DNA of 40,294 bases from Escherichia phage vB_EcoP-U8: sequence record MT862763.1; one strand, 5' to 3'. The notes under the pieces are model-generated. The model did no database searches. It was given only the letters and a program-made list of their open reading frames with translations, and was not told where the DNA came from. How positions within the stretch are numbered: position 1 is the first letter of the stretch; each line of letters starts with the position of its first letter. Positions 1,504 to 34,905 of the stretch are shown here, in pieces. The translations under genes were made by a program, and so were the position numbers.

Positions 1504-1546
1504 TAATCATGAAGGCCACGACTTTGAGTCATGACCTTGAGTCTAA
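1504..1546 (-). promoter_or_regulatory. Conserved leader stem-loop element, copy A (candidate RNase III processing site, R1.1 position)
   Basis: Plus-strand TAATCATGAAGGCCAC...ATGACCTTGAGTCTA; RNA can pair AAGGUCAU with GUGGCCUU; same element at 10689..10726 and 34865..34905. Confidence 0.4.
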
Positions 1547-1566
1547 TCCTATAGTGATAGTTTAGG
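1544..1566 (-). promoter_or_regulatory. Phage RNA polymerase promoter (phi1.1 position)
   Basis: RC reads CTAAACTATCACTATAGGATTA; CACTATAGG core as in T7 promoters; upstream of gene 1.1. Confidence 0.75.
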
Positions 1567-1641
1567 GTTAACCTCTTCTGCGTTGGATTAAAGTGAATAC
1601 TGCGAGTGCTCCCAGCCACAGGGCCAGTAACTGTATGTCTG

Positions 1642-1857
1642 TCATTTGGCCTGCTCCAGCTTGGACACTGCGTCCTTCAGGTACTTCTCGTGGCTGGACT
1701 CGACCAGATATACAAGAGTCTTGAACGGGATGTTAAGCTGCTTGGACATCTCGGTAGGGATGACCGTGGTCTTCACCAGACCCTTGCCGTTGTGTTCTGT
1801 TACGGTCACGATTTGAGTCCCACCATTAACGCCAGTATGCTTGTGTGCAAATTTCAT
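1642..1857 (-). CDS. hypothetical protein (between gene 1 and 1.1)
   Basis: 71 aa ORF with SD AAGGAGAG upstream of ATG. Confidence 0.5.
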   Translation of the reverse strand: MKFAHKHTGVNGGTQIVTVTEHNGKGLVKTTVIPTEMSKQLNIPFKTLVYLVESSHEKYLKDAVSKLEQAK

Positions 1858-1867
1858 AACTCTCTCC

Positions 1868-2098
1868 TTATCTAATTAGAGGGAATGACGGATACTGAAT
1901 GCGCTCGTCTTCCATCCACGCGTTAAGAACTTCATCAATCGAAGCTATAAGGTTGTACTCGTTAGGTTGAATCCACCCAGTCACACCCGACTGTAATCTG
2001 TCTCGGAGAATGATTAAATCCTTATAAGTCAGCTCTACATGGCAACGTCCCGACCCATCGTTGAATACCCTGTTGTGTGCTACAAGTTTCATTGACAT
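1868..2098 (-). CDS. hypothetical protein (between gene 1 and 1.1)
   Basis: 76 aa ORF; SD AGGAG 6 nt upstream of ATG, immediately after RNAP stop. Confidence 0.5.
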   Translation of the reverse strand: MSMKLVAHNRVFNDGSGRCHVELTYKDLIILRDRLQSGVTGWIQPNEYNLIASIDEVLNAWMEDERIQYPSFPLIR

Positions 2099-2113
2099 AT
2101 ACTTCTCCTGTTG

Positions 2114-4795
2114 TTAAGCGAATGCAAAGTCTGAAGACAAGATGTCTTCGATATTCAGTTTACCTTTCTTCGGAAGCTCAGGCAACTTGTCTCTCTGGCT
2201 CTCGTGAAGCTGGTATTCAAACTGCTCGTAGAAGTCAAGCAGCACATCGTTGTCGCGGTAGGTCTCGACCATCGTCTCACGGACTCCACGGAACAGATAC
2301 TCAGCGTCAGCCGGGATGGTCCCGAAGCTATCGTGAATCACTGCGAATGACATCACGCCATATTTGCGGTGCGTGTGTACTACAGTCTTGCGGAGGTGGC
2401 TACCATCTTGTGAGTGGACGAAGTTCGGGCTAATGCCTGACTCCTGCTTGTGCTTGTCCAGCTCTTTCTTCGTGCCTTTGTTGACGGTAGGCTGAAGGTT
2501 GAATGACCCTAAGAACATCAGGTTCAGACGAGTGGTGTCCTTCTTGCGGTATTCCTGCCAGACAGGGAAACCATCAGGTGTGACCCAGTGTACCGGAAGA
2601 CAAGGCTTCAGGATTTCTCCAGTCTTCTTGTCCTTCACTTCAGCAGCAAGCAGCTTGGCAGCACCCTGAAGCCATTTCATCGCGTCAACCGCAGCAACTA
2701 CGGTCACACTCACAGCTTCCCAAATCATCTTAGCCATGAAGCGAGATGCTTGGCTTGGTTCAGTGAACATAGCGCCAGACCCTGAGTCAATCGCTGGCAT
2801 CACGATGTCCTCGTAAACTTGGTCTGCGAAGCCGTACTCTTTCGACCCGTAGGCCAGAGTCATGACCGAACGCTTAGTGACCTTTCGTGACATACCGTAG
2901 GTCAGCCACTGACGGGCAAGCTCTCGTGTCCCCAGCTTGAGACGCTCGGTAATCTCACCAGTTTTCTTGTCCTCGTGAGTTACCATCTCGTTGTCCGTAC
3001 CGTTAACCAGTAGGACTTTAAGCTCCTCCTCAATGCGGTCAGACACGATGCGGTAGATGTCTTGGACCTTACCGGATGGCGTCAGGTTTACTGCATGTCC
3101 ACCGATGTGGTCGCGAAGCATAGCGCTGAAGTGCTGAATCCCAGAGCAGGACCCATCGAACGCTATCGGCAGCGAGCAGGAGTAAGACAAGCCGTGGTGC
3201 ATTACGCCAGCATACTCGAAGCAGAACGCTAGGAAGCAGAACGGAGAGTCTAACTTGCCCCACCACTCAATGCTATCCATCGGTGCCTTGGCAGCAGCCA
3301 TGATGTTGTCGTGGTTATCTTCCACCCACTTGATACGCTCCTCGAAGGTGACTTTATCGACACCCGCGCAGTTTGCACCGTGGACCTTCAGCCATTTGAA
3401 ACCATCAGCACCAATAGGCTTACCGACTGCCAGAGTCAGAAGACCCTTTTGCATGTCGTTACCCTGAGGGTTGAACATCGGCACAGCGTAGACGCGACCG
3501 CGCCAGTCCATGTTATACGGGAACCAGATGGCCTTGAACTGAGAGAACTTGTTCGCTTGGTTGACGATAAAGCTCAGTGACAATCTTCGTGACTGTCTGG
3601 CCTTCTCGCGGCGATAGATACCAGCAGCAGCCTTCTTCCATGCCTTGAGTTCTTCTTCAGTCTCACCCGCATAGTCCTCAGGCTTCAGCGGTTCCATCTG
3701 AGGGATGTCATCAATAGGCGTGTTGTTCAGCTTCTCGACCATGTTCACCACTTCCAGAACCTTCTTGTTCACTTTCCAAGGTGTATTCTGAATGATGTTC
3801 ACAGCGTCATAGACTTCAGGCATATACACGTCTTCGTAGCGTGCTACCGCAGACTTAGACCCTAAGCGAATCAGTGGTAATGGTCTGCGTCCTTTGGCCC
3901 AGTACCCACCGCCTACGACACCAGTCCACGGCTTAGGTGGAACGACGCAAGGCTGGTAGACTGGAGCTATACCCGCAAGGCTGAATCCTCGTTGTGCCAT
4001 CTTCTTGACCCAGAAGTCTGACAGGTGGACCATCTCAACGTCAGCCGCTGCATTGCCAGCACCGTAACGCTTAAGCTCGACCAGTTGTGTGGACTGGATG
4101 ACAATCTCCAGCATCTTGATTCCAACGTGGACAGCCTCGGTCGGACTCCAAGTCCCCCACGCATCTTCCAGTTGGCCTTGCTCCAGCATGGATGCCTCGA
4201 CCGCTTGCATGTAGGCTTTCTTGTAGGACGCCCCGGCCCGCTTATTCAGGTTATCAGCTATCGCCTTCTTGAAGTGCTCTTTCTCCTTGTCACGGATGCG
4301 ACCGAAGCGGATTTCGTCCTCAAGTGTGCGACCTATCGCTGAGGCCATCGGTGTAATCGGTATCCCTTCAGGCTTGACCAGCTTGGAGAGTATGACCTTC
4401 AGTATGATAACCGCAGCAGACTCGCAGGAGATGCGCAAAGAGCGGACCTTTACGGCCTTCTCTTCAGTGCTCAACATGGTGAACGCTACGCTCGGACGAG
4501 AGGTTGACAGCTTCCCGTCTGGACCTTCATGCCACTCCTTGACGGCTTGCGCAATCTTAGGGACCAGAGTCTGCATCAAAGGCTTGGCGACCTGATTGTC
4601 TGCCAGTTCCCCTCGCTCAGTCTGTCTCTCAAGGTTCTTGATGAAACGTCGCTCGCCTTCAGTGTATGCCTCGTGCTCAAGCTGAAGCTGTTTGACTGCA
4701 AGGTCTTGCCCGTAGTGGTCAGCCAGTAGGTTAAACGGCTCAATGGCGTTCGACACATCAGAGAAGTCGTGCTTGTCAATAGAGATGACGCTCAT
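2114..4795 (-). CDS. Single-subunit DNA-directed RNA polymerase (T7 gene 1-like)
   Basis: 893 aa; collinear with T7 RNAP as recalled (MSVISIDKHDFSD..., ...ILSSDFAFA C-terminus, NMDWRGRVYAV, HDSFGT motifs). Confidence 0.97.
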   Translation of the reverse strand: MSVISIDKHDFSDVSNAIEPFNLLADHYGQDLAVKQLQLEHEAYTEGERRFIKNLERQTERGELADNQVAKPLMQTLVPKIAQAVKEWHEGPDGKLSTSRPSVAFTMLSTEEKAVKVRSLRISCESAAVIILKVILSKLVKPEGIPITPMASAIGRTLEDEIRFGRIRDKEKEHFKKAIADNLNKRAGASYKKAYMQAVEASMLEQGQLEDAWGTWSPTEAVHVGIKMLEIVIQSTQLVELKRYGAGNAAADVEMVHLSDFWVKKMAQRGFSLAGIAPVYQPCVVPPKPWTGVVGGGYWAKGRRPLPLIRLGSKSAVARYEDVYMPEVYDAVNIIQNTPWKVNKKVLEVVNMVEKLNNTPIDDIPQMEPLKPEDYAGETEEELKAWKKAAAGIYRREKARQSRRLSLSFIVNQANKFSQFKAIWFPYNMDWRGRVYAVPMFNPQGNDMQKGLLTLAVGKPIGADGFKWLKVHGANCAGVDKVTFEERIKWVEDNHDNIMAAAKAPMDSIEWWGKLDSPFCFLAFCFEYAGVMHHGLSYSCSLPIAFDGSCSGIQHFSAMLRDHIGGHAVNLTPSGKVQDIYRIVSDRIEEELKVLLVNGTDNEMVTHEDKKTGEITERLKLGTRELARQWLTYGMSRKVTKRSVMTLAYGSKEYGFADQVYEDIVMPAIDSGSGAMFTEPSQASRFMAKMIWEAVSVTVVAAVDAMKWLQGAAKLLAAEVKDKKTGEILKPCLPVHWVTPDGFPVWQEYRKKDTTRLNLMFLGSFNLQPTVNKGTKKELDKHKQESGISPNFVHSQDGSHLRKTVVHTHRKYGVMSFAVIHDSFGTIPADAEYLFRGVRETMVETYRDNDVLLDFYEQFEYQLHESQRDKLPELPKKGKLNIEDILSSDFAFA

Positions 4796-4864
4796 ACTTA
4801 AAGTCCTTGTTATTAGTCTTTCACTTAAAGTCTCTTTGGTCTTTCACTTGGAGTCTTAGACCTT

Positions 4865-4887
4865 GAGTCCTATAGTGATAGTTAAGT
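4865..4887 (-). promoter_or_regulatory. Phage RNA polymerase promoter directly upstream of the RNAP gene
   Basis: Plus strand CCTATAGTGATAGTTAAG at 4869..4886; +1 about 75 nt upstream of the RNAP start codon. Confidence 0.65.
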
Positions 4888-4892
4888 CAGAA

Positions 4893-5219
4893 TTACTTGC
4901 ATATCAGCGGGTTAGCGTGGAGATGACTGAAGTCACCATGAGTCGTGTGCTTGATGGTTGACCGTTGGTCTATCGCCTTCCAGCCTGAGACTAAAAGTTT
5001 ACCATCGTCAGTGATTGGTCGTCCACCATACACCAGACACATTAGTTCGGACTTATGGCCCTCAGCCCGGAGTCTTGCTTGCAGTACCCGGTCCCGCTCC
5101 TGCTGTTGACGTGCGGAGTGACTTGACGTTCCGTGACGATACCCGGTAGCCAGTAGGCTTAACATTTGCATGTCTGCGTCCATAGAGTGTACCAGATTAA
5201 TCCCGTATGACTTGTTCAT
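4893..5219 (-). CDS. hypothetical early protein
   Basis: 108 aa ORF in early region; His-rich segments; no recognised family. Confidence 0.45.
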   Translation of the reverse strand: MNKSYGINLVHSMDADMQMLSLLATGYRHGTSSHSARQQQERDRVLQARLRAEGHKSELMCLVYGGRPITDDGKLLVSGWKAIDQRSTIKHTTHGDFSHLHANPLICK

Positions 5220-5593
5220 TACAGTTTGCTCCCAAGTGTTGCTATATCCCAGACGTTCGCTAAGTTACGCATGAATCGTCCGTTAGGTTGACGTACAGTC
5301 CAGCTACCCAGACGTACATATTTGAATTTGTAGACTTTACGCGCTTTGTTGATGTCTCTCACCAGCACGTAGGCGATAAGTCCATAGCCTATGGCTATCA
5401 ATAGTGCGATACTCATAGTCATAAGCCCCATAACAGTTGAGTAAGGACCGGTAGTTTGCAGACTAGAGTAAACATTCCCCACGCTACGAAGCCTGAGATA
5501 GTCCAGATGATTGCAGTGCTCATAGTTAACTCCTATTAATTCAAGTGGTAATCTTTGAGGCCACCTATCAGTCGATGACCTCTCGTCTATCAC
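5219..5593 (-). CDS. hypothetical early protein with predicted transmembrane helix (start uncertain)
   Basis: 124 aa ORF; hydrophobic stretch MSIALLIAIGYGLIAYVLV; a 33-aa alternative-frame ORF with strong SD overlaps near 5430..5531. Confidence 0.3.
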   Translation of the reverse strand: MIDERSSTDRWPQRLPLELIGVNYEHCNHLDYLRLRSVGNVYSSLQTTGPYSTVMGLMTMSIALLIAIGYGLIAYVLVRDINKARKVYKFKYVRLGSWTVRQPNGRFMRNLANVWDIATLGSKL

Positions 5594-5636
5594 TCAGTAC
5601 CCGCCTGTCAGCGTTATGGTCAGGCTGTGATACACG

Positions 5637-5792
5637 TTACTTATCCTCAGCGTGCAAACTGTCGTGTATGCGCTTGCGGCCCTCATAGACCGCTTTCAGG
5701 TGACGCATAGTCGCATCGTGGTTTAATTGCCCGGTCTTGACCATAAGCCGGGCGTTAGTGACGTGGTGCTGGCAGAGACCATAAGTTACCAT
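5637..5792 (-). CDS. hypothetical early protein
   Basis: ATG at 5790-5792 overlaps kinase stop (AGATGGTAA), suggesting translational coupling; 51 aa. Confidence 0.3.
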   Translation of the reverse strand: MVTYGLCQHHVTNARLMVKTGQLNHDATMRHLKAVYEGRKRIHDSLHAEDK

Positions 5793-6310
5793 CTTGATGA
5801 CCTCACCTCTTGCAGCTTGGACACAAGGAAGAAACAATCAACCAGTATCAACTTGCCATCCACAACCCGTACATTACGTGGGCTTATCTCAAACTGAATG
5901 TCTGACCCGAAGTTAGCGCAAGCGTCCAGCGCCATCATAACATCCATCAGGCCCTCCCGCACAGTCTCAGACTCAGACCTGTCGTGTGCATCTTGGAATA
6001 TCTCGTACCACTTGTGATACAGTTCGGCAGGTCGAGAGAATACCGGAGACCGTGAGAAGCAGTCTCGCAACACCTGATAGAGTTGCCATTGGTCATCGTC
6101 TAAATGCGCCTTGAGACCTCGTGTTGGTGGCATGTATTCCATCTCATATGTGCCTACCTCAATCATTTTGACTTCAGGGAACAGTGGAGACTCAGGGAAC
6201 CATCCCCACGCCATACACTCCTTGATTGGGTCTGAAGATACCAGAATCACACGCTTCCCGCAGTCCTTCAGGTAACACTTAGTGAATGCGCCTTTTCCGA
6301 TCAGTTTCAT
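5786..6310 (-). CDS. putative protein kinase, gp0.7-like but short (kinase domain only)
   Basis: 174 aa; N-terminal IGKGAFTKCY glycine-rich loop and VDGKLILVDCFF resemble T7 gp0.7 kinase region; SD AAAGGA 8 nt upstream. Confidence 0.45.
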   Translation of the reverse strand: MKLIGKGAFTKCYLKDCGKRVILVSSDPIKECMAWGWFPESPLFPEVKMIEVGTYEMEYMPPTRGLKAHLDDDQWQLYQVLRDCFSRSPVFSRPAELYHKWYEIFQDAHDRSESETVREGLMDVMMALDACANFGSDIQFEISPRNVRVVDGKLILVDCFFLVSKLQEVRSSRW

Positions 6311-6380
6311 CTTGTTTATCCTTTAGTTAGTGACTATCAGTCAGGCCGCTATCAGTCTAACGACCTGTAGTTAATCACTC

Positions 6381-6635
6381 TCAGTTAGCGAAATAAGGAG
6401 CTGAGACGCCCACTGTAGGACTCACGGTTATCTGCGAGTCTATCAGGTATGTCTCGTTGTCTATACGCACAGTATCGACGCTGTAGTTGCTGAACTGCTT
6501 GCTTGATACCTTGCGCACTACCACACGGTGACGCGCTCCTGTCATCTCTTTAAGCTGAATCCACGCATAACCTTTAGTGTTCACGAATACTTCATTGCGA
6601 TTAGTGATTGTGCTTAAGTGTTTCATAGTGTCCAT
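6381..6635 (-). CDS. hypothetical first early protein (gene 0.3 position; not Ocr-like)
   Basis: 84 aa ORF; start may be the Met at codon 4 (better SD spacing). Confidence 0.45.
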   Translation of the reverse strand: MDTMKHLSTITNRNEVFVNTKGYAWIQLKEMTGARHRVVVRKVSSKQFSNYSVDTVRIDNETYLIDSQITVSPTVGVSAPYFAN

Positions 6636-6804
6636 CCTTTAAGTTAGTGACTATCAGTCAGGGCCTTCAGATGTAGACTCAAAGGCCCTGTAGTTAGTCG
6701 CTATCGGCGCACATTAAGAGTTTATCCAGATTGTTAAAGAGCATTCCCTTCAGTCAGAGGACTTCAGGTAGACCGTTTCAGTGTCGGTCGTCACCGTTGT
6801 TTCG

Positions 6805-6843
6805 ATGTGGTACAGCTTACATCTTATCGTTACTGCTTGTCAA
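6805..6843 (-). promoter_or_regulatory. Candidate host sigma70 early promoter (T7 A2/A3-like architecture)
   Basis: RC reads TTGACA-N18-TAAGCT-GTACCACATCGAAAC, resembling T7 A3 (TTGACA...TACGAT GTACCACATGAAAC) as recalled. Confidence 0.4.
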
Positions 6844-7104
6844 CTACTTTCTGTCATCTGCCTGTTGTTCGTATGACTTATCAGGCTGTCTACTTAACCG
6901 GGATGACCAGGCGTCTTCACTATCCGGTTGTTGCCGTGTCGTGTTGACGGAAGCTATTAGGCCATAGTCTGGACCTATAGTCAATAGGTAATTTTAAATA
7001 ATATTGATTAAGCTATCGTCGGCCCCATGGTGTAAGAGGATGTAGTCTTTGACTAACATGTCTTAGACCTTAAGTCTATATCCTTGTGTCTATTAACGTA
7101 GGTC

Positions 7105-7185
7105 TCTGACTGTAGGTAGCGGCATTACCGATGGTCGATGACTGTAGGTAGTTAGACTGTAAGTAGTTAGACTGTAGGTAGTGAC
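7105..7185. repeat. Short tandem/direct repeats (GACTGTAGGTAG x4, last three at 15-bp period) in genome-end region
   Basis: Copies at 7108, 7140, 7155 (one mismatch), 7170; lies between gene 19 and the early promoters, where T7 carries terminal-repeat and CCTAAAG-type repeats. Confidence 0.6.
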
Positions 7186-7618
7186 TCAAGGTCTGATACA
7201 GATAGAGACTCAAAGAAGACCAATAGTCCCTACCTATCGTCTTTCCCTAAGCCATAGCCACAACCTATCGTTGACCTGAAGTCTTGACCATCGGTCTAAC
7301 CTTATGATAGACTGGGGTAGGGCCTTTGGTCTGGACTAAAAGAGGGCCTATGGGGAGACTTGAGGTTCTTGAACTGTGAGATGTGGTCTCAAACTTTTGG
7401 TCCAAAACTCATCGTCACTACTGTAGACCACAGCCACTGTAGGTCAATGACCGTAGGTCAGGCGACACTAGGATAGACCAATAAGTAGGATGACCCTAAG
7501 TGAGCTTCTCTTAAGGTGTTACCTAAAGTCCTTGACTACAGTAGCTAAGGTCAGTAGAGTAGCGTCAGCTATGAACTGACCTTAGGTCTTGCTTTCGTTG
7601 ATTGTTACCATTACGGCG

Positions 7619-7777
7619 TTAACGACACTCAGACACCAGAGAACATACGAGAGTCTCGACCCACCCGACCCACTGACTTCCAGCAGTAACGCCAGCAGCA
7701 AGTAGAACAGCAGCAAGAAACCTGTATGTAGCTCGATTGGTCGCCAGAGCTTTAAGTACAGCTTTGGTCTTTGCCAT
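7619..7777 (-). CDS. small hydrophobic ORF (gene 19.5 position)
   Basis: About 52 aa, MAKTKAVLKALATNRATYRFLAAVLLAAGVTAG...; SD AGGAGG 10 nt upstream; downstream of phiOR-like promoter. Confidence 0.3.
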   Translation of the reverse strand: MAKTKAVLKALATNRATYRFLAAVLLAAGVTAGSQWVGWVETLVCSLVSECR

Positions 7778-7957
7778 ATGCTACATACCTCCTGTATCTA
7801 TGGTCGGTGACTATCTGTATTGGAGGGATTATGATTAATATCACCCTCCTTCCATCGGTGCAAGCCTTAGGTAAGAACTCGGAGTCTGCCTCCTAAGGTC
7901 TTGCATAAAGTCTGCATATGTATATTCACTACAGTAATACTATAAGTAACCGGGGGT

Positions 7958-7980
7958 CTTCCCTATAGTGATAGTTAAGT
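7958..7980 (-). promoter_or_regulatory. Phage RNA polymerase promoter (phiOR position, after gene 19)
   Basis: Plus strand CCTATAGTGATAGTTAAG at 7962..7979. Confidence 0.7.
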
Positions 7981-8074
7981 CCAAACTCCTTGTAAAACAG
8001 TAGGTTAGACTGGTAGTAACTATAGGTTACTAACTGCGTATTCATGCAGCTTTCACCTATAGTTATTCATTCAG

Positions 8075-9838
8075 CTAGTGGAACGTAACGTAGTGCCCTA
8101 GTCCAAGCTCGTCGTCCGTATCGTGAGTTACCCGGACCCCATTGTCCCAGAACTCAGTGTGGATGGACTCGAAGCCTTTCCGTGGGTTCTCCATCTGTTC
8201 CTCCAGCCACTCCTCAGTGACTTCACGTTCTCCTTTGTTGGCATCCTTAGCCATAGACTCAACGAAGAACTGTACACCGATAGCCAGCGCATCAAGTCGG
8301 TCATCGTGTGCCAAGGCCCCACGTTCACGAGAGATACGGGTCATCTGATAGAAGAGAGAGTAGATAGGGTTACGAACACCATCCTTGTCAGAGGCTGTCT
8401 GGTAGTCTTGGACGATAGCAGCAGCGTTGACGATAAGTCGGTGAGACCCCATGATAGGCTCCAGAACGTCACAGATGCGGAGTTCTTTCTGACCCTTACT
8501 CTTCACTTCAGTTACAGCCGCAGGATGGATACGGGCCGCTACAGGCTTGAATAACTCAAGGTACATACCATCACCGAAGTTACCCTCAATGACGTATTCG
8601 TTGACCTTCCACTTACGACCAATCTTAGCCAAGGCTTCCAGAGTAGAGTCTTCATAACCACCACGCATACCGCCTACTTCCATAGCGAAGATGTAGCCGT
8701 TGAGCTGATACAGTACCGCATAGCCAGTTTCATCCTTACCACGACCACTAGGGTCAATGACCAGAATCTTCTGGGTGTACGAGCTGAAGGCAGAACCTAC
8801 AGTCTGATACGTGTGGTATGAGTCACCCATGAGTCCAACGTTAGGGACGTCCTCACGCTTGTTCTGAGGGTTAGGCAACCATTGGTAGACCATTGGACTA
8901 GACGCTGGGTCCAAGTCCGCTACGATAAGGTCACGGAGCTTCAGAGGGTACTTCTCAGCATCACTCAGGTTCGGGTTAAGCATGAACTGTAGAGCGAAGC
9001 CAGCTTTACCATAGGACAGCTCACGTTCCTTCAGGTCCGTATCATCGAATCGTACCTCATCGGTCGGACGCCAGTAGAAGGACTCAGGGTCCTCTTCCAG
9101 TTCTGCCTGAAGCATAGGAGCCAGACGGTCGCCGTAAGACTGCCAGTCCTTCCTGTCGCGTGGGTAACGAGCAGGCCAGATAGTAGTGGTGTACCCACGA
9201 CCTTCCAACTCACGGTACAGGGTCATCTCGTTCTGAGGAGTACCCAGATAAATGATTGTGCCTCCCGGCTTCAGGATAGCGTCGAACTCTTTCACAAGCT
9301 CTGACAGACGGTCTCGTGCAGCCTGAGTCGCAGAGTTATTAGGAACCTCCACGTCATCTGCAATCAGGATGTCAGCACGACTACCAGTCAACTGACCAGT
9401 GATACCAACAGACTTAACCGAAGGTGAGTGGTCTGGCTTGGCTGGCCCAACGTCGAAGCTAATAACAGCATCTCGCTGTCCCTGCTTAGGTTTGAGTTCC
9501 TGAAGCTGAGGCATGAGGTCGATGATTCGCTTGATGAATATGGAGTTAGCATCGGCTCGTTCCTTTGAGGCCGACACAATCATGAACTTCAAGTCTGGGT
9601 TGTTCCATAGTTTCCAGACCACGAATGCACACGTAATGAATGACTTCCCGATACCACGGAACGCCTGAAGGATGAAACGCCTGTTGTCCCCAGCCGATAG
9701 TTTCTTCGCCATGTCAATCTGACAGCGAGTCGGGACTGGGAGCGACAGAGCTTTCCACAGGACGAACAGGAAGAACACGAAGTCGGCCTTCATACGTGCC
9801 GTCATAAGCGCCTGACGCGCCGCTAAGTCTTGACTCAA
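8075..9838 (-). CDS. Terminase large subunit (T7 gp19-like DNA maturase B)
   Basis: 587 aa; collinear with T7 gp19 as recalled ([18 protein letters not shown] Walker A region, [19 protein letters not shown]). Confidence 0.95.
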
Positions 9839-10284
9839 GGTTTCACCTCCTTCTCTTGCTGCATGGCTCTCACGGTCTTCTGGAGGGCCTTAATCCATTC
9901 GTCACCTTTCAGTCCGATGGCGATAAGACGCTTAGCATCTCGTTCGTCAAGTTCGGCGTAACCATCAATGACGCATCGACCGTCAGTCTGGACTGTTCCA
10001 CTGGTGGGTTCGACGCGGATGCGCATCCGCTTGTTATCGCGGTTAAGGTCAGCAATAATCCTATCAGTAGAGCCTTCCAGCGCGGACATCTTGTCTTGCC
10101 ACTCGGCTGACACTTTGTCGATTTCACCTTGGACAGCAGCCCGTTGATTCTCTCGTGCCTCAAGTTTCGTGATGTACTCATCGTTTACTTTCGCCTCCCA
10201 CTTATTGTCTGCCACCCAGTAGCCTGAACAGAACAGGAGTCCTGCCACCAGCCAAGGGACGGCCTGTCGTAAAAGTTTGAGCAT
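9835..10284 (-). CDS. Rz-like i-spanin (T7 gp18.5-like)
   Basis: Matches T7 gp18.5 ([22 protein letters not shown]); start set at the Met preceded by GAGGAGGG rather than the ORF-track start at 10299. Confidence 0.8.
9909..10181 (-). CDS. Rz1-like o-spanin lipoprotein embedded in Rz (+1 frame)
   Basis: Lipobox ITSGC; matches T7 gp18.7 as recalled ([10 protein letters not shown]..., [13 protein letters not shown]). Confidence 0.75.
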   Translation of the reverse strand: MSTSRNLRHERINGLLSKVKSTKCQPSGKTRCPRWKALLIGLLLTLTAITSGCASASNPPVEQSRLTVDASLMVTPNLTNEMLSVLSPSD

Positions 10285-10302
10285 AGTTGCCCTCCTCATT
10301 TC

Positions 10303-10674
10303 TCAGAATCGACGTACAAGCGTCTTCTCTAGGTATGAAACAGCCCGCTGGACACTAGATGTAGTATCTCCCAGTGCGCCAATTGCTGCATTGCACTTGC
10401 GGCATAAAACCCCTCTAATCACCCCAGTGGAATGACAGTGGTCAATACACGCAGAGTCTGTATCTCCTTTCTTCCCACCTACTTTAAGCGGAGTCTTGCA
10501 AATCTCGCATGAGCTTCCCACCGAGTGCATCAGGTCCTCGAACTGTTCAAGCGTGAGACCATATAGGCTCTTTATCTGCGAAATGCGCTTAGTCCTCTTT
10601 CTTCGTTCCTCCCGTTCCTCTCGTAATTTACGAGCAGCTTGAACGTTAGCCTTTATAACATCTTCCGATACCAT
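10303..10674 (-). CDS. Endonuclease VII-family protein (putative homing endonuclease) between gene 18 and 18.5
   Basis: CEICK...IDHCHSTGVIRGVLCRKCN, the Cys/His pattern of T4 endo VII-type proteins; SD AGGAGGTGGT before ATG. Confidence 0.75.
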   Translation of the reverse strand: MVSEDVIKANVQAARKLREEREERRKRTKRISQIKSLYGLTLEQFEDLMHSVGSSCEICKTPLKVGGKKGDTDSACIDHCHSTGVIRGVLCRKCNAAIGALGDTTSSVQRAVSYLEKTLVRRF

Positions 10675-10688
10675 ACCACCTCCTAGTG

Positions 10689-10726
10689 TTAATCATAAAG
10701 GCCACCAATAGATGACCTTGAGTCTA
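10689..10726 (-). promoter_or_regulatory. Conserved leader stem-loop element, copy B (candidate RNase III site, R18.5 position)
   Basis: TAATCATAAAGGCCAC-N-ATGACCTTGAGTCTA immediately upstream of the endo VII-like gene RBS. Confidence 0.4.
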
Positions 10727-10730
10727 ACAC

Positions 10731-10994
10731 TTACTGGACACCATACCCAGTGTCATTATCCTCGGTCGCTGATAGCACCTTGTCGTACTCTCTGTTCAGC
10801 GCCTCCATGTCTGCCAACTGCTTCTCGTCCACCGACACCTTGCTTAACACAAAGTTGTGACGGGCCAGCAGCTTCTCGATGGCGTTGTAGAGCTGGGGCG
10901 AACGCTTAGAGTCATCCCGCAGGTCTTGCAGCATTAGTCGAGCACGTTCGGTGTCCAGCATTAACAGGAACTTCTCTAAGTCCATCTGCGTCAT
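10731..10994 (-). CDS. Terminase small subunit (T7 gp18-like)
   Basis: 87 aa; FLLMLDTERARLML...RSPQLYNAIEKLL matches T7 gp18 as recalled. Confidence 0.85.
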   Translation of the reverse strand: MTQMDLEKFLLMLDTERARLMLQDLRDDSKRSPQLYNAIEKLLARHNFVLSKVSVDEKQLADMEALNREYDKVLSATEDNDTGYGVQ

Positions 10995-11185
10995 GTCTTA
11001 CCTCCGCTCTTAATCGTCTTGTAAATTAGGACGCCAATCTGCACCACGGTGTACGCGATAGCAGCGACGTAGAACCATTCGTTGAGCGTTAGCCCAAAGA
11101 AGAACCGACTGGCACCATCAGCCGCAGCGGTCCCGACGATAGGCGAGGCTTTGAGGACCTCATTCTTGAAGTCAAACTCAATCAT
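10991..11185 (-). CDS. Holin (T7 gp17.5-like)
   Basis: 64 aa; GLTLNEWFYVAAIAYTVVQIG nearly identical to T7 gp17.5 as recalled. Confidence 0.85.
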   Translation of the reverse strand: MIEFDFKNEVLKASPIVGTAAADGASRFFFGLTLNEWFYVAAIAYTVVQIGVLIYKTIKSGGKT

Positions 11186-11252
11186 AATACCTCCATTGTT
11201 AAACGGGCCGTCCTTGACCCAAAGTTGTTACCATACGTTGGTCAGCGTGTAG

Positions 11253-22239: not shown

Positions 22240-22289
22240 AAGGGCCTATAGTCCCTATAGTGATAGTTAAGGTAAATCTATAGGCCCTT
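22240..22289. repeat. Perfect 12-bp inverted repeat (AAGGGCCTATAG / CTATAGGCCCTT) enclosing the phi13 promoter
   Basis: Arms at 22240..22251 and 22278..22289, 26-nt spacer containing promoter core. Confidence 0.8.
22250..22272 (-). promoter_or_regulatory. Phage RNA polymerase promoter (phi13 position)
   Basis: CCTATAGTGATAGTTAAG at 22254..22271. Confidence 0.75.
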
Positions 22290-26929: not shown

Positions 26930-27031
26930 ATGATAATTCTCCTATTCAATTGAAAGATAAAGTTTATTACTTACTGTATGCCCAATCCGTATGGACTGAA
27001 GTAATAGGGAAACCTTGAGTCTTTCTCTTGG

Positions 27032-27054
27032 TCTCCCTATAGTGATAGTTTAGT
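27032..27054 (-). promoter_or_regulatory. Phage RNA polymerase promoter (phi10), full consensus with GGGAGA start
   Basis: RC: CTAAACTATCACTATAGGGAGACC; transcript 5' end can form GGGAGACC...GGUUUCCC stem as in T7 phi10 leader. Confidence 0.85.
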
Positions 27055-27055
27055 C

Positions 27056-28019: not shown

Positions 28020-28042
28020 TGTTCCTATAGTGATAGTTTAGG
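28020..28042 (-). promoter_or_regulatory. Phage RNA polymerase promoter (phi9 position)
   Basis: CCTATAGTGATAGTTTAGG at 28024..28042; overlaps portal stop codon. Confidence 0.75.
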
Positions 28043-29606: not shown

Positions 29607-29617
29607 TCGTCACCTCC

Positions 29618-30281: not shown

Positions 30282-30285
30282 TGTC

Positions 30286-30510: not shown

Positions 30511-30524
30511 AGTCCCTCCTACAG

Positions 30525-30797
30525 TTAATCGAACTGAACGGTATCTTTCAGCTCACGACGCATAGCAATCGCAGAGTCGAGAGTGTCAGAACAATACTGG
30601 AGACCCTTGATGAACCCGGCAATGAACGCATCGCTGTAGCCTTGCTGCTTGAGGAGACTGATAGCTCCCATCTTCTCAGCGTAGCTTGCGTTGAACAGTA
30701 CGTGCAGGAACTGGATGGCAGACTGGGAGATGTTCGGGACATCAAGTCTTTCTTCCTGTAATTGCTTAACAACGTTTTCAATAGCATTAAGCGCCAT
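30525..30797 (-). CDS. gp6.5-like protein
   Basis: 90 aa ORF downstream of phi6.5-position promoter. Confidence 0.5.
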   Translation of the reverse strand: MALNAIENVVKQLQEERLDVPNISQSAIQFLHVLFNASYAEKMGAISLLKQQGYSDAFIAGFIKGLQYCSDTLDSAIAMRRELKDTVQFD

Positions 30798-30858
30798 CTT
30801 GAATCTCCTCTTTAAGTTAAGACTAAAGTCTATCTTATAGTCATATCTTAGGTCCTAA

Positions 30859-30881
30859 AGTCCCTATAGTGATAGTTTAGT
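30859..30881 (-). promoter_or_regulatory. Phage RNA polymerase promoter (phi6.5 position)
   Basis: CCTATAGTGATAGTTTAG at 30863..30880. Confidence 0.75.
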
Positions 30882-30933
30882 GTTTCACCTATGGATGACT
30901 GTTGGATTGATAGGATATGACTATCGGCTAGAC

Positions 30934-31026
30934 TCAGTGTTTAGGACGGTTGTTCGACCCGAACCACTTGTACATGCAGTAAAGGGCCAGAAGTCCGACC
31001 CAGTAAATTACATGGATGGTGTCCAT
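30934..31026 (-). CDS. small hydrophobic protein (gp6.3 position)
   Basis: 30 aa MDTIHVIYWVGLLALYCMYKWFGSNNRPKH; SD AGGAGG 7 nt upstream; overlaps gene 6 3' end. Confidence 0.4.
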   Translation of the reverse strand: MDTIHVIYWVGLLALYCMYKWFGSNNRPKH

Positions 31027-31880
31027 AGGATGACCTCCTTGGACTTAGGGTCGTAGTCGTAGGCTCGGCAAATACGAGCGACCTGAGCTTGGACCAGAAG
31101 TTCCTCCTCGGTCATCCCAGCTTTAGCAGCCAGAGTCACCATGCAGTCCCACAGCGTCATGTCGTCACGCTTTGGATACTTCTTCCACTCAGTCTTAATC
31201 TGGCCTTTGTTCTTACCAGTCTTAAGCTCACGGCTCTCCTGTACGAAGTAGTACGGCTCGTCAAGGAACGCGCGTGTGGTATCCTCACCCATCCCCGGAA
31301 TGCCACCGTAGCCATCTGTGGTGTCACCCTTGATGGTTTGCTCCATGTGCCAGTAGTCTGCCTCAGCAGTCGTATGACTCAGGATTTCACCAGTGGTTAA
31401 CCAGAAGAACTCACAGTTCGGGATGGTCTTGAAGTCCTTATCACAGGACACCAGAACAGCATGGTCACAGCCTACAATCTGAGGTCTGGTCCCGATGATA
31501 CCCATACAATCATCGCCTTCAAGCGTAGGACGCAGGAAGCTGTTGAACCGTGTGTCAGCCATCACTTCGGCTACGAACTTCTTGTAACCTACAGGCTTGC
31601 GAGAACCTTTACGGTTGGCCTTATAGGTAGGCAGGACGTCCTTACGCCAGTTGTAATCGTCAGTGAAGCACATCACAATCTTAGCGTCTTTCCACGCCTT
31701 GCGCTTCTTAACGATTTCAGCGATGGTGTTCTCAAGGATACGACGAGCCTTTGCATGGTCGCAGATAAGGGTATAAATATCATCGCCCCAATCTGTCTCG
31801 TCCTCAGCAGCAGCCATAGATGAAAACACTAAGTAGTCACCATCTAACACAAGAGCTATTTTCTTTTCGCTCACAGGCAT
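31008..31880 (-). CDS. 5'-3' exonuclease (gp6-like); start uncertain (ORF-track start 31928, alternatives 31880 or GTG 31874)
   Basis: Matches T7 gp6 as recalled (CDKDFKTIPNCEFFW, KGDTTDGY, TLWDCMVTLAAKAGMTEE). Confidence 0.9.
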   Translation of the reverse strand: MPVSEKKIALVLDGDYLVFSSMAAAEDETDWGDDIYTLICDHAKARRILENTIAEIVKKRKAWKDAKIVMCFTDDYNWRKDVLPTYKANRKGSRKPVGYKKFVAEVMADTRFNSFLRPTLEGDDCMGIIGTRPQIVGCDHAVLVSCDKDFKTIPNCEFFWLTTGEILSHTTAEADYWHMEQTIKGDTTDGYGGIPGMGEDTTRAFLDEPYYFVQESRELKTGKNKGQIKTEWKKYPKRDDMTLWDCMVTLAAKAGMTEEELLVQAQVARICRAYDYDPKSKEVILWTPSM

Positions 31881-32080
31881 CCTCCATGTTGGTTCAGGAA
31901 CTTGGTGCCAGCAGCGGTAATCTCCCACGCACCGTTGTTACGCCCGTCCATAGACAGACAGCTCAGATGTCCACGACTCGCAGCCTCAGCCACCAGTGCC
32001 GCATTGTTGCGCACGTAGTTGGACTGGAAGGTCTTCGGGCAGGACTTAAGGGCCGCTAGGACCCGTAAGTATTCACTCAT
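31871..32080 (-). CDS. gp5.7-like protein
   Basis: 69 aa; MSEYLRVLAALKSCPKTFQSNYVRNNAALVAEAASRGH nearly identical to T7 gp5.7 as recalled. Confidence 0.85.
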   Translation of the reverse strand: MSEYLRVLAALKSCPKTFQSNYVRNNAALVAEAASRGHLSCLSMDGRNNGAWEITAAGTKFLNQHGGCL

Positions 32081-32370
32081 TGCTTGACCTCGAATCGCAG
32101 GTTAGATACTCCGAACTGGTCATAACCAAAGTCGTCTACCAGCTCCTCCTTGATGGTCTTCTTGAGGGCAATTTCAAGGGCAGACTCAGGGCCTGACTCG
32201 ATTGCGGTTTTGACCAGAGCCAACTGAAGACCATCCAGCTTCTCACCCTCAGCGTAGGCTTTAGTCATCTCAGCCAGTTGGCGACACATGGTATCTTCTT
32301 CCTTTGAGTTAACAACCATCTTCAGATCAAAACTCACACGAATACGTTTAGTAATAGCCATTAGTGACAC
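32077..32370 (-). CDS. gp5.5-like protein (H-NS-binding protein family in T7)
   Basis: ATG at 32368-32370 with SD AAGAAGGAG; MAITKRIRVSFDL...EVKQ resembles T7 gp5.5 as recalled. Confidence 0.8.
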   Translation of the reverse strand: MSLMAITKRIRVSFDLKMVVNSKEEDTMCRQLAEMTKAYAEGEKLDGLQLALVKTAIESGPESALEIALKKTIKEELVDDFGYDQFGVSNLRFEVKQ

Positions 32371-32786
32371 TCCTTCTTAACAAGTTTGCGCTCACGGTTC
32401 GTCTTAATGACGTGTTCGCGTTTTGGAATACACTGTAGATGCTCTATGTTGCAGCACCCACGGTTCAAGCACAAATGGTCTATTTCGTAGCCATTTGGTA
32501 TAGGTCCGCGCCTCTGCTCCCACACCCATCGGTGGAACATGAAGGCGAACTTGTTGCCCTTCCTGTAGCTTCCCATGGAGTACCGGAAGTACCCATCTTG
32601 GTTCCTCTTGTGGGACACGCAGACGATACATCCGGTAGGCATGGTGTGGAAGCGTAGGGTCTGGGTTCGAGGGTCAATGACACTCTTTCCACGTTGGTCC
32701 AATCTTACCCTCCGTATCAAGTTCACACTTGAAGTTATAGAAGCGTCCGACCTCGCGCATCGCCTCTTGAGCAATACGGACGACAT
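32361..32786 (-). CDS. HNH homing endonuclease-like protein overlapping the 3' end of the DNA polymerase gene
   Basis: HRWVWEQRRGPIPNGYEIDHLCLNRGCCNIEHLQ HNH motif; ATG at 32786 has SD GGAG, overlapping pol by 113 nt in another frame; an internal Met at 32642 has no SD. Confidence 0.75.
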   Translation of the reverse strand: MSSVLLKRRCARSDASITSSVNLIRRVRLDQRGKSVIDPRTQTLRFHTMPTGCIVCVSHKRNQDGYFRYSMGSYRKGNKFAFMFHRWVWEQRRGPIPNGYEIDHLCLNRGCCNIEHLQCIPKREHVIKTNRERKLVKKECH

Positions 32787-34845
32787 CTTCTGCTATCTCC
32801 TGAGTACGGCACGCTATCTGCAATTCATCGTGAATCCAAGCCATTAGCGCAAAGTCGCCGTCCCATCCGTTACCGTAACCAGCCTCTTCAAGTTTCTTCT
32901 CAGTCAGTACCATCCAGTGCTTACAGACAACCGCACCGTCCCCCTGAAGTAGGGCGTTAAGTGCTGAGTGTGGAGACCGGATGTGAATACGACGACCATC
33001 CAGACCTTTCAGCCAGCGACGTTTCCACTTGACGATATTCTCACCGTCCACCCACTTAGAGTCTGAGATTAACGTATTACTCACAGCTTCCCTGAGGTCC
33101 TTGATGGCTGGTGTACCCTCAATGAATTTCTTCATCAGAGCTGAACCTTCCTTCTTACCACCGCCTACTATCAGTCCAATCTTAGCGGCCCCTGCACCAT
33201 ACAGGAACGCGTAGATGAACGTCTTAGCGTTGTTACGGAAAGCCTCATGGTCGTGGTTAGACTTATCGCGTTGGACGTTAGGTGCTAACCCAGCGTTTAC
33301 TGCGTTGGCCCAGTGGATGTCACCTTCTACCACAGTCTTCGCATATGCACCACCATCAAACGGAGCCGCTCTGTTCCCAAGACAACGAAGCTCAAGACCT
33401 GAGGCATCCACACCAACTTGAATCCAAGGGTCTGGCTTACCGTCCTTCTTGTTCCACGCTGCACCGAAAGCACCACGGCAAGTCTCACCATATGGAGCAC
33501 CGTTAGCCGGGACCTGAGCCATGTTTGGTGAACTATGGGTCGCACGTCCGGTTACTGCCCCGCATGGGTTTATTGAGCCGTGCATACGTCCGTCTGGACC
33601 TACAAGTTTCAACCATGCGTTCTTACCTTCAGCAGCCTGACCGATGCGCTTCTGGACGACCAGATATTCACGGACCAGCTCTACGCAAGCCTGAGCCTCT
33701 GCGTCTGGTAACTTAACGTGTTCTAACGTCTCGTCATCGACTACAGGTTTCCCGGTGTCAGTGAAGTCTACAGGCTCCCAGCCACGCTCCATCAGGACTT
33801 TCGCTAAGTGGTCTCCGCTTCCCGGATTAAACTCAACGTAAGTGATTGGCGTGAAAGGCGCTCCTTCCATCGTGTCTCGCGTATCACGCTCACAAGGTTC
33901 AAGACCTAAGCGTTGAGCTTTGTTCTTCGGCTTCTTAAAGATGCCACCGACCTTAGGATACACGACTCGCGGATACTTCGGAAGGTCCTTGCCAGTCCGT
34001 GGGTGCTTGAAGAACTCCTTGCCTCCCTTTGGTGCGTACCAGCTACCGAAAGTCGAACGCAGCTTGTCCAGCAGCTCTGCACGTTTGACGGTTAGTTCAC
34101 GATATAAGCCTTCGACCATCTCGGTGTTCATCGGATAGCCGTTACGTTCCATCTTCGCACAGGTCCACGCAGCATCATGTTCCAGACGCAACGCATAAAT
34201 CTGGTCGAAAGCGAACTGTTCAGACTGGAAGTAATACTTGTCAGTCAGGAACTTCTTGAACAACGCCAGTGTGACCACAACGTCCTGAACGTTATAGTCC
34301 AGCATCTCCTGAGACGGGAACAACCATTCGTCCCCAGCCTTATATTCGATACCTTCTGCCTTGCACTTGGCAACGTAATCGTGTTTGTACTCACCCTTCA
34401 TCTCACCGAGACGATAACCCCAAGCCTCAAGAGACTGGCGTCCCATCATCTTAGGAGGCAGACGACCAGCTTTCACCGCGCCCATGTCTGAGAACTTAAT
34501 GTTGGGATACATCAAGCGACCCAGCACCAAGGTATCAATCATCTTGTGTTTCGGGAAGTTAAAGCGTTTCCCGAAGTACAGACGCTTCAGCTTGTCAATA
34601 GCCGGGACGTCATAGTTGATACCGTTGTGGAATACCAGCATACCATCAGGTGATGCGGCAATCTCTTCCACCTTCTGCACATACTCTTTGAAGCCACCGA
34701 CGATACCGACCATCGGAGCTACCCCATACTTAAGGGTCTCATTCGACTCGGCGTTAATCAGGACCCCACAGTGAAACTGGGAGACTGTATCAAGGAGACC
34801 GTTGGTCTCGATGTCAGAACCCCAGATACTCTTAAGGTCAAACAT
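32674..34845 (-). CDS. DNA polymerase (T7 gp5-like, family A with 3'-5' exonuclease)
   Basis: Collinear with T7 gp5 as recalled; start set at MFDLKS (GGAGG SD) rather than ORF-track start 34881; ends ...KECH. Confidence 0.97.
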   Translation of the reverse strand: MFDLKSIWGSDIETNGLLDTVSQFHCGVLINAESNETLKYGVAPMVGIVGGFKEYVQKVEEIAASPDGMLVFHNGINYDVPAIDKLKRLYFGKRFNFPKHKMIDTLVLGRLMYPNIKFSDMGAVKAGRLPPKMMGRQSLEAWGYRLGEMKGEYKHDYVAKCKAEGIEYKAGDEWLFPSQEMLDYNVQDVVVTLALFKKFLTDKYYFQSEQFAFDQIYALRLEHDAAWTCAKMERNGYPMNTEMVEGLYRELTVKRAELLDKLRSTFGSWYAPKGGKEFFKHPRTGKDLPKYPRVVYPKVGGIFKKPKNKAQRLGLEPCERDTRDTMEGAPFTPITYVEFNPGSGDHLAKVLMERGWEPVDFTDTGKPVVDDETLEHVKLPDAEAQACVELVREYLVVQKRIGQAAEGKNAWLKLVGPDGRMHGSINPCGAVTGRATHSSPNMAQVPANGAPYGETCRGAFGAAWNKKDGKPDPWIQVGVDASGLELRCLGNRAAPFDGGAYAKTVVEGDIHWANAVNAGLAPNVQRDKSNHDHEAFRNNAKTFIYAFLYGAGAAKIGLIVGGGKKEGSALMKKFIEGTPAIKDLREAVSNTLISDSKWVDGENIVKWKRRWLKGLDGRRIHIRSPHSALNALLQGDGAVVCKHWMVLTEKKLEEAGYGNGWDGDFALMAWIHDELQIACRTQEIAEDVVRIAQEAMREVGRFYNFKCELDTEGKIGPTWKECH

Positions 34846-34864
34846 GGTTAATCCTCCGTTTAGT

Positions 34865-34905
34865 CTAATCATAAAGGCCACTCTATGTGAATGACCTTTA
34901 GTCTA
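34865..34905 (-). promoter_or_regulatory. Conserved leader stem-loop element, copy C (candidate RNase III site upstream of gene 5)
   Basis: CTAATCATAAAGGCCAC-N-ATGACCTTTAGTCTA immediately upstream of pol RBS. Confidence 0.4.

Follow-up and report, generated by a model that had tools for sequence, protein, structure and literature searches.

Probable T7-type RNase III processing signals in the K1F-like coliphage vB_EcoP-U8

Introduction

The genome of Escherichia phage vB_EcoP-U8 (MT862763.1) raises a simple question: what is the function of a structured element that recurs just ahead of three of its genes? The window, meaning the whole stretch of 40,294 nucleotides that was analysed, is the complete, circularly permuted genome of a T7-like coliphage of the genus Kayfunavirus (K1F group); its genes lie on the minus strand. 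Processing of T7-group mRNAs by RNase III has been textbook knowledge since the 1970s–80s. The enzyme processes the polycistronic transcripts of T7 at specific sites (PMC6938266), and an internal loop in the substrate confines E. coli RNase III to one cut, so that a protective 3' hairpin is left (PMC1540722). The evidence assembled here makes it very probable that all three elements act as T7-type RNase III processing signals in polycistronic mRNAs, and that the genome carries six or more of this kind.

Structure and position of the three hairpins

A strict pattern, TAGACTMAAGGTCAT-N(4-14)-GTGGCCTTYATGATTA, matches the window exactly three times, always on the minus strand (1504-1545, 10690-10726 and 34866-34905), and is absent from dinucleotide-preserving shuffles (0 matches). 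These hits bear out, to within 1 nt, the copies that an earlier sequence-only reading had placed at 1504..1546, 10689..10726 and 34865..34905. That reading set the copies 10-45 nt ahead of a start codon; the measured distances are 33 nt (ATG 1470), 15 nt (ATG 10674) and 20 nt (ATG 34845), and the downstream genes are the ones it named: a gene 1.1 homologue, an endonuclease VII-like ORF and DNA polymerase. Each copy is a hairpin of about 55 nt, consisting of a lower stem, an asymmetric internal loop (5/6 nt; GACUC / UAUGAU) and an upper stem of 9-12 bp. The 8-bp stem originally described, AAGGUCAU/GUGGCCUU, is present with two G.U pairs but is merely the base of this longer upper stem, and what had been seen as flanking partial complementarity is a genuine lower stem of 5-8 bp. 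All three copies have the irregular two-turn form of a T7-type single-cut, internal-loop RNase III signal, and the T7 sites fold alike. In every copy the fold is stable: against shuffles, z lies between -3.2 and -4.4. Each copy is intercistronic, lies on the transcribed strand and occupies a position syntenic with a T7 site.

Copy 1 (1496..1553, minus strand; pattern match, 59.0 bits with the covariance model, E 1.8e-13) follows the RNA polymerase gene and is flanked by a phi1.1A-like promoter on one side and gene 1.1 on the other, in synteny with T7 R1.1. Its lower stem, UAGGAUUA/UAACCCUA, contains one A.C mismatch, its internal loop reads GACUC / CAUGAU, and its 12-bp upper stem is closed by a CAA loop (fold -20.2 kcal/mol, z -4.4). 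The phage-RNAP promoter (1548..1566, minus strand) is one of 11 matches to CCTAAACTATCACTATAGG, with 0 expected by chance; its transcript begins GGAUUA, which is the 5' strand of the copy 1 lower stem. The 3' strand of this stem is formed by the 5' part of a degenerate second promoter-like box, found by motif match at the phi1.1B position (1487..1506, minus strand), which departs from the promoter consensus at -11, -10, -8, -2 and -1. The first gene downstream of copy 1 is the gene 1.1 homologue (1291..1470, minus strand; 59 aa, phrog_4383), whose product is 41% identical to T7 gp1.1 (E 7e-6).

Copy 2 (10682..10734, minus strand; pattern match, 61.3 bits) comes right after gene 18, which encodes the small terminase subunit (10731..10994, minus strand; phrog_1351, E 1e-34), in synteny with R18.5. 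The gene 18 stop codon lies inside its lower stem, AGUGUUA/UAACACU; the internal loop is GACUC / UAUGAU and the 9-bp upper stem carries a UAUU loop (fold -20.8 kcal/mol, z -3.2). The endonuclease VII-like gene (10303..10674, minus strand; PHROG endonuclease VII families, E 7e-31) sits between copy 2 and an Rz-like gene (9835-10299). It is absent from that place in 23 of 23 close relatives, in which Rz directly follows the site, and is a strain-specific insertion.

Copy 3 (34858..34913, minus strand; pattern match, 61.7 bits) separates the gene 4 cluster from gene 5, the DNA polymerase gene (32674..34845, minus strand; phrog_17, E 3e-164), in synteny with R4.7. It combines a GUCUA/UAGAC lower stem with a GACUA / UAUGAU loop and a 10-bp upper stem, AAGGUCAUUC/GAGUGGCCUU (fold -25 kcal/mol, z -4.3). 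In one fold, an outer CUUCU/GGAGG stem, with its 5' strand in coding sequence, extends over the polymerase Shine-Dalgarno sequence.

Relationship to the T7 sites

T7 R0.5, R1.1, R4.7 and R18.5 have nearly the same sequence as the three copies, and their columns align. The consensus ACUCAAGGUC...GUGGCCUU(U/C)AUGAUUA is common to both groups, as are the succession of lower stem, asymmetric loop and upper stem, the strand, the intercistronic placement and the synteny. In an alignment with seven T7 sites, conservation covers the upper-stem base together with the strands of the loop (ACUCAAGGUC ... GGCCUUUAUGAUU). T7 R0.5, which reads GAUAGACUCAAGGUCGC...GAGUGGCCUUUAUGAUUAUC, has TAGACUCAAGGUC...GUGGCCUUUAUGAUUA in common with the elements here and loops identical to those of copy 2. 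T7 R1.1 reads ACUCAAGGUCAUUC-GCAA-GAGUGGCCUUUAUGAUUG; copy 3 matches it throughout the 10-bp upper stem and in the 3' loop strand, and a 56-nt blastn query of copy 3 matches T7 5858-5892, which is R1.1. Pairs 2-9 of copy 2 are those of T7 R1, and pairs 1-8 of copy 1 are those of R1.1, with pairs 9-12 lacking a T7 precedent. These comparisons bear on whether antideterminant (inhibitory) base pairs may lie in the proximal or distal box of the helix beside the scissile bond. The T7 site and cleavage coordinates used are those we take to be given by Dunn & Studier (1983), cross-checked only by the common UAU^G register in six independent sites (R0.3, R0.5, R1.1, R4.7 and R18.5 among them, compared base by base) and by the model matches. 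In the versions consulted, T7 records NC_001604 and V01146 list promoters and no RNase III features.

The two groups differ in their lower-stem sequences and apical loops, and in local context. In copy 1 the lower stem runs into the promoter boxes on either side; in T7, by contrast, phi1.1B starts beyond R1.1. T7 R4.7 is followed by phi4.7, but copy 3 by no promoter; unlike T7, the present phage has no gene 4.7 homologue between copy 3 and the polymerase gene, and it carries the inserted endonuclease VII gene after copy 2.

Complementarity of the lower stems is kept among the three copies although their sequences differ. In the alignment of the seven T7 sites with the three copies, 95.3% of cells are paired, and both sides have changed in 7 of 15 pairs. 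The covariation score is 0.447 versus 0.203 in shuffles (0/500 reach 0.447), and at most 0.104 with slid partners. Compensatory change of the kind expected of a T7-type RNase III signal is thus found across the T7 sites and the three copies. Within single Kayfunavirus orthologous sets covariation is weak, because the site sequences are too similar; one A-U to G-C swap is seen in three distinct sequences of relatives. The structure is also strand-specific. The three copies score 59-62 bits with the covariance model on the minus strand versus 10-14 bits on the plus strand; the T7 sites themselves score 40-65 bits, and the model also recovered T7 R6.5, which was absent from its training set. In the strand comparison, fold energies are -19 to -22 kcal/mol for sense RNA and -10 to -18 kcal/mol for antisense RNA, a difference explained by the G.U pairs in the stems.

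Conservation among relatives

Among the relatives compared, which are IMG/VR phage genomes or loci, copy 1 is kept in 24 of 24; for close relatives the figures are 23/23 for copy 2 and 24/24 for copy 3. Upper stems in these relatives are perfect at 9-14 bp, and apical sequence and length vary. K1F (NC_007456) has the same six model matches as the present genome, at equivalent positions 12852, 36445, 5565, 1029, 1765 and 706. Sites of K1F and other Kayfunavirus phages differ from the present ones only in apical-stem and loop details and in neighbouring accessory genes. More distant T7-like IMG/VR loci (51-55% protein identity) gave no model match with filters off at E <= 1; either the consensus type belongs to the nearer clade alone, which is mainly enterobacterial, or its divergence puts it out of reach of the present covariance model. 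Alignment, synteny, compensatory changes and conservation together support the original suggestion that the copies are likely RNase III sites mirroring T7 R1.1, R18.5 and R4.7.

Further sites in the genome

The three copies first reported are real, but the count was too low: the covariance model adds three diverged members, all on the minus strand. An R0.3-type early site (6326..6382; 40.9 bits, E 2e-8; fold -23.3 kcal/mol, z -3.9) directly precedes the ocr-like gene 0.3 (6310..5786) and has the same architecture, with the loop AACUAC / ACUGAU. An R0.5-type early site occurs at 5541..5597 (33.6 bits, E 2e-6; fold -18.9 kcal/mol, z -1.8). The remaining early site, at 6643..6705 (30.1 bits, E 2e-5; fold -25.6 kcal/mol, z -3.4), is upstream of an 84-aa ORF (6635..6381). 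Their K1F equivalents are 1029-1085, 1765-1821 and 706-768, respectively.

Hairpins of another type occur in T7 at R3.8, R6.5 and R13, where they include a phage promoter or the transcript 5' end. Two stems in the present genome, both seen by eye and both on the minus strand, resemble these; unlike the three copies, they have neither the ACUCAAGGUC/GGCCUUUAUGAUUA consensus nor an internal loop. The R3.8-like leader hairpin (36936..36972), identified by alignment with T7 phi3.8/R3.8 and K1F, lies at the 5' end of the transcript from promoter 36971-36989. It folds at -14.6 kcal/mol (z -2.7), has CCCUUUGUUCGCAUU (15 nt) in common with T7 R3.8 and shows one compensatory pair difference in K1F; the covariance model gave no match at this hairpin. 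The possible R13-like site (22240..22289) is a 12-bp stem, GAAGGGCCUAUAG/CUAUAGGCCCUU (z -3.1), that encloses phage promoter 22254-22272; its likeness to T7 R13 is presumed, and it is the weakest of the sites listed. The genome therefore contains at least six or seven sites, not three: six of the consensus type, the R3.8-like leader and possibly the R13-like stem, compared with ten sites in T7. With the covariance model and folds, no convincing equivalent of R1 or R1.3 was found in this genome. A candidate R1-type site upstream of the RNA polymerase gene has ACUCAAGGUC right after a promoter, but was rejected on its z-score of -0.6 and lack of a model match. In an Rfam search of the window at E <= 1 the sole match is a tRNA (36846-36921), with none at the three sites; absence of an Rfam family there says nothing against the RNase III assignment.

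Proposed processing mechanism and alternatives

Homology with the T7 sites suggests how the three copies would act. (i) The minus-strand RNA of each copy is predicted to fold into an irregular helix of about 20 bp, to which host RNase III would bind. (ii) The internal loop would restrict the enzyme to one cut, as in T7, in the 3' loop strand at (U/C)AU^GAU; the predicted minus-strand cuts fall between 1509 and 1508, 10695 and 10694, and 34871 and 34870. (iii) The upstream RNA (gene 1 region, gene 18 and ORF71/gene 4 region) would then end in a complete upper hairpin, protecting it from 3' exonucleases, so that gene 18 mRNA, for example, would terminate in the copy 2 hairpin. (iv) The downstream RNA would begin GAUUA..., with a leader of 38, 20 or 25 nt to the start codon released from the lower stem; the 25-nt leader would be that of the DNA polymerase gene. 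An effect on mRNA stability would follow from these steps, and one on translation is plausible. At copy 2 a translational effect would have no conserved basis, because relatives carry a different gene downstream of the site, about 40 nt further on. Since T7 itself can grow in the absence of RNase III (PMC6938266), the sites are perhaps dispensable. The present phage has no gp0.7-size kinase ORF, and T7-style stimulation of RNase III would accordingly be missing. The literature searched contained no experimental end-mapping for vB_EcoP-U8 or any Kayfunavirus, and no paper mentioning both Kayfunavirus and RNase III.

Stable folds alone would also suit hairpins that are never cut, which would stop 3' exonucleases or, like some engineered R1.1 variants, be bound but not cleaved by RNase III, and would separate cistrons structurally. 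Loop or bulge motifs that permit RNase III binding and inhibit cleavage are indeed known (PMC1540722). This account is nevertheless improbable: T7 sites, R1.1 among them, have exactly this helix beside the scissile bond and exactly this 3' loop strand, and within a polycistronic RNA a 3' barrier can arise only after an endonucleolytic cut. R1.1 itself serves as the standard substrate for assays of E. coli RNase III, as in the work of the Nicholson laboratory.

Two further accounts are less probable still. As intergenic hairpins on the transcribed strand, the copies might stop or stall the host or phage RNA polymerase, as terminators or pause sites do, and one Vibrio phage record annotates a terminator–promoter feature under a weak match. 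Yet the stems are A/U- and G.U-rich, and immediately beyond them, without an intervening promoter, come essential genes (Rz, terminase large subunit and DNA polymerase). A terminator scan of 1-12000 left copies 1 and 2 unflagged, and the stems are followed by UAUGAUUA with no T-run; intrinsic (rho-independent) termination was rejected on these grounds. It is just as hard to credit the copies as DNA-level elements, such as recombination or homing-endonuclease targets or the ends of mobile cassettes, even though this would explain the accessory genes beside them. Strain-specific genes do lie right next to sites: endonuclease VII here, an HNH endonuclease in relatives L013 and L014, a cytosine methyltransferase in L005 and an extra ORF in L049. 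However, pairing requires G.U pairs, which are C.A mismatches on the other strand, and the lower stems covary, a signature of RNA structure. The sites are present with or without an insertion, and insertions at intergenic boundaries are expected anyway.

Implications and a possible second role

As RNase III signals, the copies are near-identical orthologues of T7 sites, and the finding is correct but ordinary, with little discovery value. Its practical use is annotation: Kayfunavirus records, including the K1F RefSeq entry NC_007456, carry no RNase III features, and the covariance model built here recovers the sites reliably. The sites set mRNA boundaries and can aid transcriptome reading of therapeutic K1-type coliphages. 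They can also guide engineering, for example in the choice of safe insertion slots.

E. coli RNase III recognises mostly helix geometry. The internal-loop nucleotides and their borders (GACUC opposite UAUGAUUA) are nevertheless near-invariant from T7 to K1F-like phages and over roughly 900 phage records, which leaves room for a sequence-specific role. A joint reading, in which the loop has such a second role and the site-adjacent slot is a preferred landing place for accessory genes, is doubtful. The single cut might be enforced by a structured loop motif or by an additional factor of the host or the phage; alternatively, the conserved GAUUA 5' end might have a function on the downstream mRNA. 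The slot just 3' of each site may be where endonuclease VII, HNH and methyltransferase genes preferentially land. If so, inserted accessory genes would gain a processed, translatable 5' end.

The hairpins and their genomic setting

The strict pattern, in which the conserved strands at the base of the upper stem are separated by a spacer of 4-14 nt, matches the window exactly three times, always on the minus strand (1504-1545, 10690-10726 and 34866-34905). Shuffled sequence gives no match. The sequence-only reading had placed three copies of one leader element before particular genes, and these are the genes found: copy 1 is followed at 33 nt by the start of a gene 1.1 homologue (59 aa), copy 2 at 15 nt by that of an endonuclease VII-like ORF, and copy 3 at 20 nt by that of the DNA polymerase gene. 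The genome is T7-like, with all genes on the minus strand; on the ORF map, the RNA polymerase gene spans 4795..2114, the large terminase gene 9838..8075 and the DNA polymerase gene 34845..32674 (all -). By megablast, the first 12 kb of the window is ~96% identical to Kayfunavirus (K1F group) phages of Escherichia. The phage genome is circularly permuted in the window, whose ends (positions 1 and 40294) fall within the ligase gene. The phage-polymerase promoter, CCTAAACTATCACTATAGG, occurs in 11 copies on the minus strand, where chance predicts 0.

RNA folding resolves each copy into a lower stem, an asymmetric internal loop and an upper stem. In copies 1, 2 and 3 the lower stem (5-8 bp) is UAGGAUUA/UAACCCUA, AGUGUUA/UAACACU and GUCUA/UAGAC, respectively. 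The loop carries GACU(C/A) on its 5' side and (U/C)AUGAU on its 3' side, and the upper stem extends for 12, 9 and 10 bp in copies 1, 2 and 3. The 8-bp stem originally proposed is present as the first eight upper-stem pairs, AAGGUCAU/GUGGCCUU, two of them G.U; the structure as a whole is larger, with the lower stem and internal loop added. The copies fold at -20 to -25 kcal/mol (z-scores -3.2 to -4.4).

The hairpins are interleaved with other signals. The gene 18 stop codon falls within the 5' strand of the copy 2 lower stem, and the stop codon of ORF 34909-35124 within that of copy 3. Copy 1 has a consensus promoter on one side (1548-1566) and, on the other, a promoter-like box that is degenerate (1487-1506, -): the 5' strand of its lower stem is the start of the transcript from the promoter, and the 3' strand supplies the first bases of the box. 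This box, at the position of T7 phi1.1B, departs from the 11-promoter consensus at -11, -10, -8, -2 and -1, and may be inactive.

Relation to the T7 sites

The T7 RNase III sites are not annotated in the T7 records (NC_001604, V01146). The coordinates of the ten sites used for extraction are taken to be those of Dunn & Studier 1983. At the sites checked base by base, these coordinates share one register, UAU^G, and are thereby supported. A consensus, ACUCAAGGUC...GUGGCCUUUAUGAUUA, is common to seven of the ten; R0.5 reads GAUAGACUCAAGGUCGC..GAGUGGCCUUUAUGAUUAUC. The consensus sites fold, like the three copies, as lower stem, loop and upper stem. The likeness extends to individual sites: the upper stem of R1.1, AAGGUCAUUC/GAGUGGCCUU, is that of copy 3, with an identical 3' loop strand, while R1 and copy 2 have upper-stem pairs 2-9 in common and a shared 9-bp-plus-tetraloop geometry. 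In an alignment of seven T7 sites with the three copies, 95.3% of cells pair and 7/15 pairs show changes on both sides. Folding and covariance analysis, the check suggested at the outset, reveal a stable conserved fold: the covariation score is 0.447, compared with 0.203 in shuffles (0/500 reach 0.447) and at most 0.104 with partners slid.

A covariance model built from this ten-sequence alignment was run over the window with filters off and scored the three copies at 59-62 bits. The initial count of three proved too low, as the model adds three early-region sites on the minus strand: one just before the ocr-like gene 0.3, at 6326-6382 (40.9 bits), and two others at 5541-5597 (33.6 bits) and 6643-6705 (30.1 bits). 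Their folded architecture is that of copies 1-3. Plus-strand images reach only 10-14 bits. The same six sites are recovered in the Kayfunavirus phage K1F; in T7, the model also recovers R6.5, which had been left out of model building. Folding and the covariance-model search gave no R1-type site before the RNA polymerase gene. The leader from promoter 36971-36989, found by eye, is an R3.8-type hairpin; it has CCCUUUGUUCGCAUU in common with T7 R3.8 and is supported by a compensatory pair change in the alignment with K1F. Promoter 22254-22272 is enclosed by a 12-bp stem, presumably comparable to T7 R13.

Conservation

Loci were fetched from IMG/VR with the DNA polymerase N-terminus, gp18 and the RNA polymerase C-terminus as queries. 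A site occupies the equivalent place in 24/24, 23/23 and 24/24 close relatives, respectively. Their upper-stem base and loop strands are near-invariant; the apical upper stem varies in sequence and length, yet forms a perfect 9-14-bp helix in every one. In three distinct sequences, G-C takes the place of one A-U pair. At 5/6 sites the sense RNA folds better than the antisense, in line with G.U pairing in an RNA element. With copy 3 as a 56-nt query, blastn matches 894 phage records, T7 R1.1 included, with Klebsiella, Escherichia, Salmonella, Yersinia, Vibrio and others as hosts. T7-like environmental contigs with DNA polymerase or gp18 51-55% identical (L026-L041, L065-L076) gave no covariance-model match with filters off; the consensus-type site seems confined to a closer, mainly enterobacterial clade.

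Proposed processing and alternative explanations

By homology with T7, host RNase III would bind the ~20-bp helix of each hairpin and make a single cut at (U/C)AU^GAU, within the 3' strand of its internal loop. The predicted cuts lie between 1509 and 1508, 10695 and 10694, and 34871 and 34870. The downstream RNAs would then carry leaders of 38, 20 and 25 nt, released from the lower stem. T7 stimulates RNase III via phosphorylation. In vB_EcoP-U8 this stimulation is probably absent, because the ORF map has no ORF of gp0.7 kinase size between the ocr-like and RNA polymerase genes (4796-6310). At internal loops, E. coli RNase III is limited to one phosphodiester; the 3' hairpin left by the cut shields RNA from 3'-5' exonucleases (PMC1540722; PMC6993053). 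RNase III processes T7 polycistronic transcripts at specific sites, and T7 is able to grow without the enzyme (PMC6938266). A putative effect of processing on translation is plausible; it cannot be conserved at copy 2.

Hairpins upstream of genes might instead terminate transcription. This is excluded: no U-run follows the stems, a terminator scan of 1-12000 leaves copies 1 and 2 unflagged, and essential genes lie downstream without an intervening promoter. Nor does a purely DNA-level role fit, given pairing that is G.U-dependent and strand-specific and pairs that covary. That the hairpins are structural and uncleaved is unlikely in view of the identity to the R1.1 substrate. Sequence, fold and covariation support the original reading of the three elements as RNase III sites, orthologous to those of T7, in a K1F-like phage. 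Elements of this kind are thoroughly known; public records (K1F RefSeq record) leave these ones unannotated.

Accessory genes, promoters and a tRNA-like gene

An Rz-like gene 18.5 lies ~40 nt after the copy 2-equivalent site in 23/23 close relatives. In vB_EcoP-U8 the endonuclease VII-like gene (10303-10674, -) is inserted directly 3' of the copy 2 lower stem; its association with copy 2 is incidental and not conserved. Loci L013 and L014 carry an HNH endonuclease (570-1007), and L005 a C5 cytosine methyltransferase (100-1008), after the R4.7-position site and before the polymerase gene; both genes re-use the DNA polymerase ribosome-binding context. In L049, gene 18 and the site are separated by an ORF of 160 aa (1464-1946). 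Slots adjoining processing sites hold strain-specific accessory genes in vB_EcoP-U8 and these four loci.

The gene for the phage RNA polymerase (start 4795) is immediately preceded by a consensus phage-polymerase promoter (4869-4887, -), which could provide positive feedback; T7, in contrast, lacks such a promoter at the matching position. The vB_EcoP-U8 transcript from this promoter begins GGACUCAAGGUC, the 5' half of the RNase III consensus, with no matching 3' half and no significant fold. At 26966-27054 (-), the promoter that precedes the capsid gene gives a transcript opening with a stable 5' hairpin, GGGAGACCAAGAG...GGUUUCCCU, similar to the T7 phi10 leader hairpin and to the R3.8-type stem.

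A tRNA-like gene (36843-36921, -) follows the R3.8-like hairpin in the gene 4 leader and precedes the Shine-Dalgarno sequence of gene 4. ARAGORN calls it tRNA-Thr (CGU), 79 nt, and the Rfam tRNA score is 36.7 bits; the CCA end is encoded and the anticodon arm is over-long. Relative to K1F, which like T7 lacks it, the gene is an ~85-nt insertion. At least 34 Kayfunavirus records contain it, under inconsistent annotations (tRNA-Thr, pseudo, other). It may function as a tRNA, or serve as a tRNA-like signal for RNase P processing.
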